DNA of 64,000 nt. Origin: an uncultured Enterobacteriaceae bacterium (GTDB lineage: Bacteria > Desulfobacterota > Binatia > Bin18). Under the pieces are notes generated by a model. That model was not told where the DNA came from, made no database searches, and saw nothing but the letters and a program-made list of their open reading frames with translations. Shown here one piece after another: positions 29,943 through 33,774 of the stretch. How positions within the stretch are numbered: position 1 is the stretch's first letter; every line of letters begins with the position of its first letter. Position numbers and translations under genes: made by a program. The stretch lies in the NCBI GenBank assembly GCA_964441775.1, contig CAYTVL010000005.1:160395-224394 (forward strand), written 5' to 3'.

Positions 29943-30839
29943 TTAACTTGAGACTTGGCCCCTGGAACCTGGAACCTGAAACTTGGAACTTTGGGCTTCC
30001 ACAGCGATCGCCATGCTCAGGTCCACGGCTGAAACAGAATGCGTCAACGCCCCAATCGAGATGAAATCCACCCCGGTTTCCGCTACTTCTCGGACGCGAT
30101 CGATACTCATGTTGCCGGACGCCTCCAGCAAGGCGCGACCATGTACGAACTGCACCGCCTCACGCATCTGCAGGGTGGACATATTGTCAAGCAGAATAAT
30201 ATCAGCCTGCGCTTCGACTGCTTCTTGCACTTCACTCAGAGTGGTGCATTCAACCTCTATACGAAGTAATGCGGAAACCCGCCGCCGCGCCAACCGTACT
30301 GCTGTTCCAACTCCGCCACAGACGGCGATATGATTATCTTTGATGAGAACACCGTCGTCCAAGCCCATGCGATGGTTCATACCGCCGCCCTGAGTCACGG
30401 CGTATTTATCGAGCAAACGAAACCCAGGCGCCGTCTTGCGCGTATCGATAATCTTGCACTGCGTCCCCGCGATCGCCTCAACAAATTGCCGCGCCAGCGT
30501 CGCTATACCAGACAAGCGCTGGAGGAAATTCAAAAGCGTGCGCTCCGCGATCAATAACGAGGCGGCATTGCCCCATAGCTCGACGACAACTTCCCCCTTT
30601 TTTACAGAGCTGCCTTCAGACTTAAGGAGTCGCGCATCAGCGTCGGCGCTCACCGCTTTCAGCACCATGTCCACCAGAGGCAACCCCGCGATGGTGAGAT
30701 CGGCTTTCGCCGTGATCTTCCCCTGTGCAGTGCAATCCGGCGGAATGGTCGCTAAGGTCGTCACATCGCCGCGACCGAGATCTTCTTCCAGCGCGGTCGC
30801 AATCAGGCGGGATACTGAGGGATGATCGAAGGGGTGCAT
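29943..30839 (-). CDS. nadC: nicotinate-nucleotide diphosphorylase (carboxylating) / quinolinate phosphoribosyltransferase, with a repeat-derived C-terminal extension
   Basis: N-terminal alpha/beta domain and TIM-barrel motifs (DTRKTAPG, ILLDNM). The last ~15 aa (SSKFQVPGSRGQVSS) are encoded by the heptamer repeat tract. Confidence 0.9.
   Translation of the reverse strand: MHPFDHPSVSRLIATALEEDLGRGDVTTLATIPPDCTAQGKITAKADLTIAGLPLVDMVLKAVSADADARLLKSEGSSVKKGEVVVELWGNAASLLIAERTLLNFLQRLSGIATLARQFVEAIAGTQCKIIDTRKTAPGFRLLDKYAVTQGGGMNHRMGLDDGVLIKDNHIAVCGGVGTAVRLARRRVSALLRIEVECTTLSEVQEAVEAQADIILLDNMSTLQMREAVQFVHGRALLEASGNMSIDRVREVAETGVDFISIGALTHSVSAVDLSMAIAVEAQSSKFQVPGSRGQVSS
29962..29996. repeat. degenerate heptanucleotide tandem repeat CTGGAAC CTGGAAC CTGAAAC TTGGAAC TTTGGGC at the 3' end of nadC
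   Basis: Direct reading. It is the same unit as the perfect (GGAACCT)5 tract inside valS. Confidence 0.8.
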
Positions 30840-30979
30840 ATTGAGTAGCCAGTAGTCAGTAGGTAAAACAATGAAGAATTAAAAATGCAAAATGAAGAAT
30901 GAACAACATGTATTTTGTTTTCAATTTCTAATTTTTCATTCTTACTTTTTAATTGGTCTTGCCATGCTGACTACTTCTT

Positions 30980-33640
30980 TCATGCTTCAATTTGCCTTAA
31001 TCGTTCCAAACTTCTTTGTAAGCTCTGCTGCTTTTCTTCGAGCTGCGCAGCGCGGTCACGTTCTTTCTCTACCACTTCTTCTGGGGCTCGGTCGATAAAT
31101 TTGGCGTCTCCTAATTTTCTTTGGACGCCAGCCATCTCGTTCGTCACTTTCCCAATTTCTTTTTCCAAGCGCTTTGTCTCTTCTGTCAAATTCACGAGTC
31201 CCGCCAACGGCACGTGCACCTCCGCACCATCTACCACAGCCAACGCCGCGCCGCGTGGTCGCTCGCCCTCCTGCTGATAACGCAGCTCACCCACCCGCGC
31301 GAGACGCCGCACGAACCCCTCATGCGTACGCAACTGAGTTTCTATCGTACCTGCCTTGGGAATAATAATCGCGGTGAGTTCTTGCGAAGGCGGCAAATTC
31401 ATTTCCGAGCGGATGTTTCGGATGGAACGAATAACGTCCATGACGAGGGTCATGCGCTGCTCCGCCTCCTCGTCTATCCATGCCGCGTCGACCTGAGGAA
31501 ACGCTTGCACCATGATACTGTCATGCTTGCGGCCTTCGTCCAGAGCGTGCCAAATCTCTTCGGAGATGAAGGGCATCACTGGATGTAGCAGCCGCATGAT
31601 CGTGTCTAACACCGTCGCCAGCACTGCTCTCGTGCGCTCTTGCTCCGCGACATCCTTGCTGTCCAACGAAATTTTGCTCAGCTCCAGATACCAATCACAG
31701 AACTCGTGCCATGTGAACTGATACAGCGCCGCCGCCACTTCATTGAAACGATACTCGTCCAACGCTTGCCTGACTTCTGTAACAGTCTTCTGTAACCGCG
31801 ACAAAATCCACCGAGCCGCTAAACTGAGATTTTCCTTGGAACCTGGAACCTGGAACCTGGAACCTGGAACCTGGTTCATGAGGACGAACCGAGCCGCGTT
31901 CCACACCTTATTGGCAAAATTGCGATAGCCAGTAATGCGGTCTGTCGACAGGCGAATATCACGGCCCATCGCGGACATCGCCGTCAACGTGAAGCGCAGA
32001 GCGTCCGTGCCGTATGCTTCCATGATGCTGAGCGGATCGATCACATTGCCTTTGGTTTTCGACATCTTCTGCCCTTGTTCATCGCGAACCAGAGCGTGAA
32101 TATAGATGTGGCGAAACGGCACGTCGCCCATGAACTTCAGGCCCAACATCATCATGCGCGCCACCCAAAAAAAGATAATGTCGAAACCCGTCACCAGTAC
32201 GGAGGTGGGATAGTACGTCTTGAGATCCTCGGTCTGATCCGGCCACCCCATCGTCGAGAAGGGCCAGAGCCCCGAGCTGAACCAGGTATCAAGCACATCC
32301 GTCTCTTGCGTCAGGTTTTTGGAGCCGCACTTCGTGCAGGCAGTGACTTCATCACGCGCCACGATCATCTCGCTGCATTCACCGCAGTACCACGCTGGAA
32401 TGCGATGGCCCCACCAGAGTTGACGCGAGATACACCAGTCGCGGATGTTCTCCATCCACGTAAAATAGGTCTTCTCCCAATGCGTTGGAAAAAACTGCGT
32501 GCGTCCGTCTTTCACCGCCGCCAACGCCACGTCCGCCAGCGGCTTGATGCGCACGAACCACTGATTGGAAAGAAACGGCTCGACCACTGTCTGACAACGG
32601 TAACAGTGGCCCAGCATAATTTTGTAGGGCTCGGTTTTGACCAGCACACCGGACTGCTGCAAATCCTCAACTAAGCGTTTCCGGCAATCGTAACGGTCCA
32701 TGCCAGCATAAGGCCCAGCCTCATTCGTCATGCGGGCCTGTTCATCCAGTACAGAAATGGACGGCAACGCATGCGTTTTACCAATGTCAAAATCGGTGAA
32801 ATCGTGCGCCGGCGTCACTTTCAGTGCGCCCGTGCCAAACTCTTTATCGACACGCAGGTCAGCAATGATCGGAATTTCACGTCCCAGCACTGGCAGCTTT
32901 AGCGTCTTGCCGACCCAGTCACGGTAGCGCTCGTCCTCTGGATGCACGGCCACCGCCGTATCACCCAGCATCGTCTCGGGGCGCGTGGTTGCAATCGTCA
33001 CCGCCCCAGCGCCGTCGCTGCGCGGGTACGAGAGATGATAGAGAAACCCTTCGCTCTCCTTCGGCTCAACTTCCAGATCAGAGAGCGCGGTCTCACAACG
33101 CGGGCACCAATTGATCAAATAGCGTCCGCGATAAATCAGCCCTTCGTCATAGAGCTGAACAAACACCTCACGCACGGCGCGTGACAGGCCGGCGTCCATC
33201 GTGAACCGTTCGCGCGACCAGTCGCAGGACACGCCCAGGGCTTTGAGTTGATTGACGATGTGACCACCCGACTCATCGCGCCACGTCCACACCCGCTCGA
33301 CAAATTTCTCTCGCCCAAGCTGCCAACGGTCCAGGCCCTGCTGCTGCAACTGCCGCTCCACCACGTTCTGGGTCGCGATCCCCGCATGATCTGTCCCCGG
33401 CACCCACAACACTTTAAAGCCATCCATGCGCTTGTAGCGGCACAGAATGTCTTGCAGTGTATTGTTTAGAGCGTGCCCCATGTGGAGCGAGCCGGTGATA
33501 TTAGGTGGTGGGATAACGATGGAGAAGGGTTGTCCATGCGGGTGCTTTTCCGGACGAAAGAAGCCGCCCTCCATCCAAAACGGGAACCAGCGTTTTTCAA
33601 CGGCAGTAGGATCGTATGTTTTTGCAAGCGCCATAGTCAT
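30980..33640 (-). CDS. valS: valine--tRNA ligase
   Basis: HIGH (PPNITGSLHMGHA) and KMSKS (KMSKTKGN) motifs, CP1 editing domain, anticodon-binding domain and C-terminal coiled coil; ~885 aa. The start is ATG 33640 or 33634. Confidence 0.95.
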   Translation of the reverse strand: MTMALAKTYDPTAVEKRWFPFWMEGGFFRPEKHPHGQPFSIVIPPPNITGSLHMGHALNNTLQDILCRYKRMDGFKVLWVPGTDHAGIATQNVVERQLQQQGLDRWQLGREKFVERVWTWRDESGGHIVNQLKALGVSCDWSRERFTMDAGLSRAVREVFVQLYDEGLIYRGRYLINWCPRCETALSDLEVEPKESEGFLYHLSYPRSDGAGAVTIATTRPETMLGDTAVAVHPEDERYRDWVGKTLKLPVLGREIPIIADLRVDKEFGTGALKVTPAHDFTDFDIGKTHALPSISVLDEQARMTNEAGPYAGMDRYDCRKRLVEDLQQSGVLVKTEPYKIMLGHCYRCQTVVEPFLSNQWFVRIKPLADVALAAVKDGRTQFFPTHWEKTYFTWMENIRDWCISRQLWWGHRIPAWYCGECSEMIVARDEVTACTKCGSKNLTQETDVLDTWFSSGLWPFSTMGWPDQTEDLKTYYPTSVLVTGFDIIFFWVARMMMLGLKFMGDVPFRHIYIHALVRDEQGQKMSKTKGNVIDPLSIMEAYGTDALRFTLTAMSAMGRDIRLSTDRITGYRNFANKVWNAARFVLMNQVPGSRFQVPGSKENLSLAARWILSRLQKTVTEVRQALDEYRFNEVAAALYQFTWHEFCDWYLELSKISLDSKDVAEQERTRAVLATVLDTIMRLLHPVMPFISEEIWHALDEGRKHDSIMVQAFPQVDAAWIDEEAEQRMTLVMDVIRSIRNIRSEMNLPPSQELTAIIIPKAGTIETQLRTHEGFVRRLARVGELRYQQEGERPRGAALAVVDGAEVHVPLAGLVNLTEETKRLEKEIGKVTNEMAGVQRKLGDAKFIDRAPEEVVEKERDRAAQLEEKQQSLQRSLERLRQIEA
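31838..31872. repeat. perfect heptanucleotide tandem repeat (GGAACCT)x5, plus a degenerate sixth unit, in frame inside valS
   Basis: Five exact 7-nt units at 31838-31872. The minus-strand translation gives QVPGSRFQVPGSK, lying between the conserved ValS segments FVLMN and LSLAARWIL. Confidence 0.9.
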
Positions 33641-33690
33641 CAATACAAAAGGGGCCCCGTCTCTCGGCGAGAACAGAACCCCTTAGGTTA

Positions 33691-33774
33691 TGCGAAAGGG
33701 GGGAATCGAACCCCCACGGGTTTTACCCCACAGGATCCTGAATCCTGCGCGTCTACCAATTCCGCCACTTTCGC
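33691..33774 (-). tRNA. tRNA-Leu (anticodon CAG), type II with a long variable arm
   Basis: Acceptor GCGAAAG/CTTTCGC, long D-loop, anticodon stem CAGGA/TCCTG with loop TTCAGGA (anticodon CAG), 14-nt variable arm, T-arm GGGGG-TTCGATT-CCCCC, discriminator A; CCA not encoded. Confidence 0.85.

Follow-up and report, generated by a model that had tools for sequence, protein, structure and literature searches.

An in-frame heptanucleotide tandem array in a variable loop of valine-tRNA ligase from an uncultured bacterial lineage: unit turnover at a probably long-occupied site

A tandem array of the heptanucleotide CAGGTTC lies within the coding sequence of valS, the gene for valine-tRNA ligase (ValRS), in a 64,000-nucleotide (nt) stretch of DNA from an uncultured bacterium assigned to the Binatia (contig CAYTVL010000005.1, positions 160,395 to 224,394; hereafter the window). 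The gene is encoded on the reverse strand with nadC next to it, and the open reading frame (ORF) enclosing the tract spans 30980..33643(-), with the real start placed at 33634 to match the 884-amino-acid (aa) protein P0001, to which the product is 100% identical. Judged from its sequence, the product is a bona fide and intact ValRS: it displays the HIGH-type and KMSKS motifs and the domains of class Ia synthetases, aligns with the Thermus thermophilus ValRS (1GAX) over residues 2-882 (E = 2e-259), and matches the Pfam models tRNA-synt_1 (PF00133; residues 16-563), Anticodon_1 (PF08264; 608-756), and Val_tRNA-synt_C (PF10458). The tract is placed 66% of the way into the gene (Table 1), and its initial annotation as a five-unit tandem repeat, translated as a repeating heptapeptide (QVPGSRF) with the frame kept, is borne out by Tandem Repeats Finder (TRF; 5.4 copies at 100%), by direct reading, by a shuffle test, and by the intact ORF, whose translation across the tract runs ...NAARFVLMN-QVPGSRFQVPGSKEN-LSLAARWILSRL... 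(in shorter form, ...RFVLMN-QVPGSRFQVPGSKEN-LSLAARWIL...). In the shuffle test, a two-unit probe (GGAACCTGGAACCT, at most two mismatches) had seven matches in the window against 0.30 expected, a number that none of 100 shuffled sequences reached.

An Asn codon, AAC, stands before the five units, and CAAGGAAAATCTC comes after them. The degenerate sixth unit once counted with them is CAAGGAA (31832-31838), which resembles the CAGGTTC unit at only about 3/7 bases and recurs as an array flank in two relatives (L084, L082). Its 5.4 head-to-tail copies place the tract among the bacterial heptanucleotide simple sequence repeats, for which at least three to four copies are expected. CAGGTTC is stop-free in all six frames, a property common to about half of all heptamers; depending on the orientation, it is translated as QVPGSRF or as EPGTWNL. 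The surrounding DNA is only moderately GC-rich, since the GC content of the window is 53-61%, and calling it GC-rich without qualification was an overstatement. The array has weak self-structure (-6.2 kcal/mol as RNA, -0.9 as DNA), and a promoter and terminator scan around valS gave nothing better than shuffled sequences. Two other roles for the array were considered and set aside: a G-quadruplex is inapplicable to a unit devoid of G-runs, and programmed frameshifting was rejected because CAGGTTC does not fit the slippery X XXY YYZ pattern and the frame runs on without a break.

In the protein, the repeat falls in the gap between the tRNA-synt_1 and Anticodon_1 models. An AlphaFold2 model computed from 55 homologues (mean predicted local distance difference test score, pLDDT, 85.9; predicted template modelling score, pTM, 0.78; numbering shifted by +1 relative to the 884-aa protein) has a helix at 565-587, a coil at 588-600, and a further helix at 606-627, and the 10-residue block over the repeat has a pLDDT of about 61 as against 88 and 91 for the neighboring blocks. 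The alignment with 1GAX is gapped at the loop, with SREGFQAKEDTP standing against NQVPGSRFQVPGSKENLS and the T. thermophilus loop being five residues shorter. Across 120 ValS homologues the loop ranges from ~13 to 49 aa, and the loops of the outgroup (13-49 aa) are unrelated to that of the window. The low-pLDDT coil, the indels relative to 1GAX, and the position between the Pfam domains uphold the notion of a permissive variable loop, and the model supports a disordered, length-tolerant segment where the catalytic body meets the anticodon-binding domain; this segment would be exposed on the surface.

Searches with the protein recovered a clade of some 40 ValS relatives, 77-89% identical to it, the closest of which are labeled in their sources as Binatia, Deltaproteobacteria, or Methylomirabilota metagenome-assembled genomes, with none being cyanobacterial. 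DNA was fetched for eleven orthologous loci of relatives (L081-L090, L211), at which the gene order valS-nadC-birA-coaX-fusA is conserved. A clear heptanucleotide array is present at the codon position of the valS loop in nine of these eleven (ValS 80-93% identical), with units that differ from one relative to another (Table 1). The peptides differ likewise: nearly all loops of the clade contain two heptapeptide-periodic copies, e.g., NVQGSTFKVQG, QVPSSKFQVP, QATGNGQQAT, QGSGVRGQGSG, or EVRSPESRVQS, and three or more lag-7 matches occur in the loop of 69% of the 42 in-group ValS proteins as against 15% of the 78 from the outgroup. The reading frame is kept across the loop in every one of the 11 orthologous DNA alleles and 42 in-group proteins, and the loop of the window (15 aa) is no longer than those of its relatives, where 14-16 aa is the norm. 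On this comparison, an array has probably held the valS site since before the clade diversified. The initial annotation had reasoned that a peptide shared by all relatives would make the segment an ordinary conserved loop; the orthologues yielded a third outcome, namely a repeat of one kind whose units and peptides vary between relatives.

These observations bear directly on the initial view that a slipped-strand repeat recently entered, or replaced, a non-repetitive loop in this particular genome. The perfect identity of the five units and the decayed, weakly periodic loop of the closest relative (L211, 92.6% aa identity) would fit such an event. Against it, L084, L082, L081, and L089 share the codon at which their arrays of related units (CAAGTTC, CAGGTTC, AAGGTTC) begin, other units fill this site in L085-L088, L211 itself keeps a CA.A..C register in the same phase, and loop length equals that of the relatives. 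The orthologue comparison thus largely refutes a recent insertion, which we consider very unlikely, and the word "inserted" does not describe a segment whose counterparts in relatives with 80-90% identical ValS are heptamer arrays at the same codon position. An assembly or sequencing artefact in the form of a collapsed or chimeric repeat might be suspected given the metagenome-type assembly, but it is extremely improbable: the reading frame is intact, the protein is of 884 aa as against 883-885 aa in relatives, and the same kind of array occurs at this site in ten independent assemblies from NCBI, JGI, and ENA.

The age of the individual copies is a separate matter from that of the site. Third-position identity at conserved codons of the 4-fold type is 0.55 between the window and L211 and 0.38-0.46 to the other relatives, i.e., near saturation, and the perfect arrays must therefore be much younger than the lineage splits. 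Four to five perfect copies of its own unit are found in each of four lineages, and since a neutral 35-nt tract of such age could not stay as five identical units, the arrays appear to have been re-homogenised within lineages. We interpret this pattern as probable concerted evolution at the valS loop, in which an old site contains copies made perfect only recently; the five identical CAGGTTC units would then reflect a recent homogenisation or expansion rather than a recent arrival. Hence, of the very recent acquisition or expansion first suggested, the recency of the perfect copies stands, whereas that of the arrival does not, given the arrays in relatives and the saturated synonymous sites. 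The lengths of some loops are informative as to the steps involved: within a GGGACCG array, two clade proteins (P0025 and P0032) are set apart by precisely 7 aa (GPETGDG), which corresponds to three units, and the long loops of the clade (21, 22, 23, 28, 28, and 35 aa) amount to the usual 14-16 aa plus multiples of seven, consistent with in-frame three-unit steps.

The valS array belongs to a wider population of heptamer arrays. A strict perfect-repeat scan of the window detects the valS and nadC tracts only, and a softer lag-match scan (at least 16/21 matches) was needed for the arrays in spacers. By the latter, the 198 kb of clade DNA contain 40 segments with period 7 (20 per 100 kb, as against 0-2 per 100 kb at the other periods from 4 to 13), compared to 0-4 segments at other periods that are not multiples of seven and 28 at period 14, while the window by itself has nine lag-7 segments versus 0-4 at other lags. 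In a control set of 80 unrelated valS loci (726 kb; ValS at most 61% identical), taken from among the matches listed in a scan of a genome collection, period-7 arrays occur at 3 per 100 kb. The 7-nt periodicity first noticed in spacers of the window (30835-30951 and 2296-2372 in the lag-match scan) is thus a property of the lineage, and an excess of period 7 is itself a hallmark of the bacterial heptanucleotide simple sequence repeats.

The locations of these arrays are strongly biased. In the 157 kb of clade DNA with gene calls, 89% of which is coding, 24 of 36 arrays are intergenic and one lies over a gene end, so that 25 of the 36 conform to the mostly non-coding or gene-end placement of this repeat class, to which the valS tract is an intragenic exception. 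The intragenic rows are nearly all from the valS loop itself (10 of 11, two of them from L087). This bias identifies the valS tract as a rare coding survivor of a mainly intergenic population. The intergenic units of the clade (L081-L089) contain a stop codon in the sense orientation in 14 of 20 cases, as against ~31% expected for random heptamers, in a small sample whose base composition is uncontrolled; as 7 = 1 mod 3, a tandem array of a stop-bearing unit shows a stop in all three frames every 21 nt. CAGGTTC occurs at two sites only in the 64-kb window, within 2 kb of each other, and different units make up the remaining arrays of the window and its relatives. Separately, a second intragenic heptamer site with CCCTAAC- or ACCCAAC-type arrays is seen in a guanylate-cyclase/TPR gene (L081 210-241; L083 3247-3281), and the window segment 2296-2425, between a small ORF and tRNA-Pro (2501-2577), is a purine-rich stretch followed by a pyrimidine-rich one, with 7-nt periodicity (lag-7 segments at 2296-2372) and 20/21-nt periodicity (TRF, 2379-2425, period 20).

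The second CAGGTTC site, correctly reported at the 3' end of nadC, is a degenerate array picked up by both TRF and a pattern search, with the units CAAAGTT, CCAAGTT, TCAGGTT, CCAGGTT, CCAGGGG, CCAAGTC, and TCAAGTT. NadC ends in ...AQSSKFQVPGSRGQVSS followed by the stop codon, with the extension at 29943-29998 on the reverse strand, and is 7-18 residues longer than in relatives (280-291 aa; tail compared with 10 orthologues), in which heptamer arrays begin at or just past the nadC stop, e.g., (GAAAGTT)n in L083 and a CAAGGTC-type array in L089. The nadC of the window apparently reads into an array that is spacer in its relatives. In L089, too, the unit at the nadC end is similar to that of its own valS.

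RNA folding gives a single long, imperfect hairpin for the spacer between the two genes, its two arms consisting of inverted heptamer arrays (GTAGTCA.. with ..TGACTAC and AAGAATG.. with ..CATTCTT), at -31.8 kcal/mol (z = -2.5, or z = -3.3 with separate shuffles). In L081 (12653-12766), (GTAGTCA)n pairs with (TGGCTAC)n at -52.5 kcal/mol (z = -6.5), and the spacers of L082, L083, L085, L087, and L088 yield z from -2.8 to -6.3. The orthologous spacers therefore display the same hairpin architecture with entirely different sequences. The G·U pairs on the sense strand suggest a structure at the RNA level, perhaps a terminator, an attenuator, or a stabiliser. An Rfam scan of the whole window returned two tRNAs only, with no known RNA family over the arrays or hairpins.

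Taking these strands together, we consider it likely that a heptanucleotide microsatellite has long resided in the permissive loop of valS, where it is renewed by slippage-type events and filtered for frame and a harmless peptide. By this proposal, 7-nt tandem arrays would arise and turn over readily in this uncultured lineage, with nearly all of them persisting in intergenic spacers and a few in genes, where the encoded peptide is harmless. The valS array would be repeatedly re-homogenised in each lineage by replication slippage or by unequal exchange among its units, and purifying selection on what is presumably an essential copy of the gene would remove variants that break the frame, introduce a stop codon, or encode a harmful peptide. 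Slippage combined with purifying selection would result in a fixed position with differing units, in perfect copies within a lineage, and in alleles that are all in frame; equally, an old site with young perfect copies calls for repeated homogenisation, for which slippage filtered for the reading frame is the most likely means.

That the array persists at a single site throughout a clade whose synonymous divergence is saturated raises the alternative that it is kept because it is useful, be it as a tunable flexible linker by the anticodon-recognition helix or as a cis element in mRNA or DNA that is read in a 7-nt register, e.g., by cold-shock-type single-strand binding proteins. One such protein, CspB, is reported to bind one heptamer per protein (PMC4679880), and the conserved hairpin architectures formed by intergenic arrays of the clade suggest selection on at least those. 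We nevertheless regard a useful role for the valS array as unlikely: neither the units nor the peptides are conserved (e.g., QVPGSRF, RAQSPEP, and GTGDRGP), the array has decayed without loss of the gene in L211, L089, and L083, the self-structure noted above is small, and the outgroups function with their own unrelated loops.

Several points weigh against the proposed long-resident microsatellite. The sharing of a unit by valS and nadC, 1.9 kb apart, hints at copying between sites, which simple slippage leaves without explanation. Continuous inheritance is not fully separable from repeated re-seeding of a permissive loop, and AGAGCCC, GGGACCG, and GTTTCGA are too unlike CAGGTTC to be traced to it by substitution. 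Most length differences between orthologues are of 1 aa rather than 7 aa, and would need ordinary codon indels or a change of one unit with a compensating 4-nt indel. The window (five units, 54 nt) and L082 (four units, 51 nt) provide a possible instance of the latter, in that the 9-mer CCAAGGAAA, common to both, is translated in different frames, giving S-K-E in one locus but P-R-K in the other, as would follow from the gain of one unit and a compensating 4-nt deletion; however, the two are equally well aligned by a single 3-nt gap, with K-E-N-L against K-E-D-L (MAFFT, protein alignment). The neutrality of the loop peptide is assumed, and the helix preceding the loop is presumably part of the anticodon-recognition surface known from 1GAX, with the loop itself perhaps close to the anticodon; a literature search on contacts between the ValRS loop and tRNA returned nothing usable. 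Finally, the slippage model leaves the period of exactly seven without explanation.

The CAGGTTC unit is not confined to this lineage. A metagenome scan for (CAGGTTC)3 found at least 120 contigs; the 80 loci fetched from them cover 35-71% GC, and the fetched contigs have further heptamer arrays at 13 per 100 kb. The runs of at least three units found in frame in FabD-like, CarA, HypF, and ABC-exporter genes (Table 1), along with the stop-free nature of the unit in six frames, make its presence in an essential gene less striking than it was taken to be. As a further observation, in L146, L134, and L162, from a metagenomic lineage of about 64-69% GC, the unit occurs in frame as a palindromic cassette, (CAGGTTC)n-GGGAAGAGnnCTCTTCCC-(GAACCTG)n, which encodes ...FQVPGSREE.SSLEPGTWNL... 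and resembles an in-frame element of the Rickettsia palindromic element (RPE) type built from heptamers; L091, L116, L129, and L139 are also listed with a palindromic CAGGTTC cassette.

Such cassettes, the identical unit at two window sites 1.9 kb apart, and the precedent of in-frame selfish insertion by the RPEs, as recounted in PMC10969869, would accord with a mobile element akin to RPEs or transposable elements of the miniature inverted-repeat type (MITEs), made of heptamer arrays and inserting in frame at permissive protein sites, with valS as one target. The valS tract displays none of the features of these elements, viz., a palindrome, inverted termini, and filled versus empty sites: it is a direct repeat only, with no inverted partner, terminal inverted repeats, or target duplication, its orthologues differ by no empty-site/filled-site length, with the outgroup loops too being of similar size, and the other arrays at the same loci use units unlike that of valS. 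We hence judge mobility of this kind to be quite unlikely. The recurrence of CAGGTTC in at least 120 contigs of such varied GC content, sometimes as a palindromic in-frame cassette, and twice within 2 kb here, also leaves room for a more speculative idea with a low chance of being right, namely that heptamer arrays are the products of an active self-renewing process, such as copying by template switch or fold-back, or an unknown enzyme advancing in 7-nt steps. Direct arrays and inverted hairpins alike would be built by this process, which would also keep them homogeneous over long periods and seed them into the linkers of essential proteins across many phyla; if real, it would be a widespread heptamer-based counterpart of the RPEs.

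Table 1. Coordinates and units of the features discussed, in the window, in orthologous loci, and in unrelated contigs
Feature	Locus	Coordinates	Strand	Basis or detail
valS coding sequence, valine-tRNA ligase	Window	30980..33634	-	884 aa; HMGH and KMSKT motifs
Loop-peptide codons, QVPGSRFQVPGSKEN	Window	31829..31873	-	Translation; residues 588-602 of 884-aa ValS
Perfect period-7 run, 5.4 copies	Window	31837-31874	-	TRF, 100% matches, score 76
CAGGTTC x5 in coding phase	Window	31839-31873	-	Direct read of sequence
GGAACCT x5, exact	Window	31838-31872	+	Direct read of sequence
nadC, quinolinate phosphoribosyltransferase	Window	29943..30839	-	298 aa; Pfam QRPTase_N, QRPTase_C, ending at residue 276
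Degenerate array, CAGGTTC unit family, last nadC codons	Window	29945..29991	-	TRF; pattern search 29957-29991
valS-nadC spacer, one long imperfect hairpin, arms of inverted heptamer arrays	Window	30840..30979	-	RNA folding
Orthologous spacer	L082	10705-10799		
Orthologous spacer	L087	2798-2956		
Orthologous spacer	L085	3904-4139		
Orthologous spacer	L088	2851-2976		
valS-loop array	Window			(CAGGTTC)5
valS-loop array	L084			CAAGTTC CAGGTTC CAAGTCC CAGGTTC CAGGTTC (imperfect)
valS-loop array	L082			(CAAGTTC)4
valS-loop array	L081			(AACGTTC AAGGTTC)2
valS-loop array	L085			(CAGGGGT)4
valS-loop array	L086			(AGAGCCC)4
valS-loop array	L087	1861-1903		(GGGACCG GAGACCG)2 then (GTTTCGA)3
valS-loop array	L088, L083, L089			Decayed versions
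valS-loop array	L211			Closest relative, 92.6% aa identity; nearly erased, CAAACTC CAGACGC CAAGCCT CAGATGC
valS loop	L090			Outgroup, 64% identity; no array, lag-7 identity 0.25
(CAGGTTC)3 or complement in frame, FabD-like acyltransferase	L133	3173-3193		Pfam
(CAGGTTC)3 or complement in frame, CarA interdomain linker	L160	1519-1539		Pfam
(CAGGTTC)3 or complement in frame, HypF between zinc fingers and YrdC domain	L107	448-468		Pfam
(CAGGTTC)3 or complement in frame, ATP-dependent DNA ligase tail	L110	768-788		Pfam
CAGGTTC array in frame, ABC exporter, just before nucleotide-binding domain	L146	3353-3373		Pfam
CAGGTTC array in frame, methyltransferase linker	L134	1821-1884		Pfam
CAGGTTC palindromic cassette in frame, ORF without Pfam scan	L162	2597-2617		

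Upstream of valS, at a distance of 57 nt, lies tRNA-Leu(CAG) (33691-33774, reverse strand). A phage-type integrase with an island of small genes is found directly upstream of valS in two relatives, L082 (6785-7903) and L086 (8737-9840), which suggests that this tRNA is an integration hotspot.

If the valS tract is indeed a long-lived, frame-incompatible 7-nt microsatellite in an essential gene, it amounts to a natural experiment in which the position is fixed while the unit drifts and re-homogenises, and in which selection passes only those versions of the array that are in frame, stop-free, and hydrophilic. It flags a permissive loop where the catalytic and anticodon-binding regions of ValRS meet. 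It also carries a warning for annotation, in that heptapeptide repeats of the FQVPGSR or NLEPGTW type in housekeeping proteins are translated microsatellites rather than domains. More generally, the lineage-wide excess of period 7, together with the hairpins of inverted arrays, offers a tractable system for asking why bacteria favor a 7-nt step.

Contingency repeats, to which the tract was initially likened, are located close to the 5' end, or in the promoter, of dispensable genes for surface or restriction-modification functions in host-adapted pathogens and act by going out of frame. The valS tract shares with them a slippage-prone tandem repeat inside a coding sequence, but neither its position nor its type of gene fits the analogy, as it sits two-thirds of the way along an essential gene and all alleles seen keep the frame. 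A closer parallel is offered by the long simple sequence repeats of bacteria at large, of which heptanucleotide repeats are the most abundant in many genomes, with polymerase slippage as the proposed cause (Mrazek, Guo & Shah 2007, as cited in PMC4679880 and PMC4692102). As far as these citing accounts describe them, they agree with the arrays of our clade in their head-to-tail 7-nt units, in the excess of period 7, in the mostly non-coding location near gene ends, and in the slippage proposed for them; the valS tract differs from the repeats so described in lying in the middle of an essential housekeeping gene and in being traced, as one orthologous site, across a clade with turnover of its unit.

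The likeness to the short tandemly repeated repetitive (STRR) sequences, drawn at the outset, is apt in that these, known from Calothrix PCC 7601 and Nostoc (GGGGA(C/T)T), and the GGGAATC repeats of Xanthomonas are likewise tandem heptamers dispersed through the genome (PMC4692102). They prefer the 50 bp around stop and start codons, and some overlap stop codons as the nadC array does here, but they form dispersed families sharing one unit, the G-rich ones with G-quadruplex potential (PMC4692102), whereas in the loci covered here the units vary by array, G-runs are absent from CAGGTTC, and the organism is no cyanobacterium, as the (heterocystous) host of STRR sequences proper would be. The TAACTGA direct repeats of marine Beggiatoaceae, Microcystis, and some Bacteroidetes are arrays of two to six copies or more, for the most part in intergenic DNA just upstream of start codons, which sometimes occur inside ORFs and are then translated as heptapeptide repeats like the valS tract; their unit carries stop codons, like most intergenic units here, but is a single conserved one that has possibly spread horizontally, and turnover at orthologous sites is not described for it (PMC4679880). 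In Geobacter metallireducens, GGGACCG x4 is found at 49 inter- and intragenic sites alongside paired inverted short tandem arrays (PMC2700814), which parallels the four-copy arrays between and within genes of our clade, and the opposite-strand pairs resemble the spacer hairpins; the valS loop of L087 even uses the very heptamer GGGACCG. Those elements were interpreted as regulatory RNAs or binding sites of one genome, with no evolutionary comparison of a single coding site (PMC2700814).

Lastly, the RPEs (Ogata et al. 2000, as presented in PMC10969869) resemble the valS tract as selfish-looking repeats that are tolerated in frame in housekeeping proteins, at sites which that account reports to be compatible with protein fold and function. 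By the same account, they are palindromic mobile elements of 100-150 bp with insertion polymorphism, whereas the valS tract, a direct microsatellite of 35 nt, shows no sign of mobility. The over-representation of heptanucleotide repeats and the slippage idea, the STRR, TAACTGA, and GGGAATC repeats, and the intragenic GGGACCG arrays of Geobacter were thus already known (PMC4679880, PMC4692102, PMC2700814); what the present locus adds to them is the record of a single orthologous coding site at which units turn over across a clade, within the gene for an essential synthetase in an uncultured lineage.

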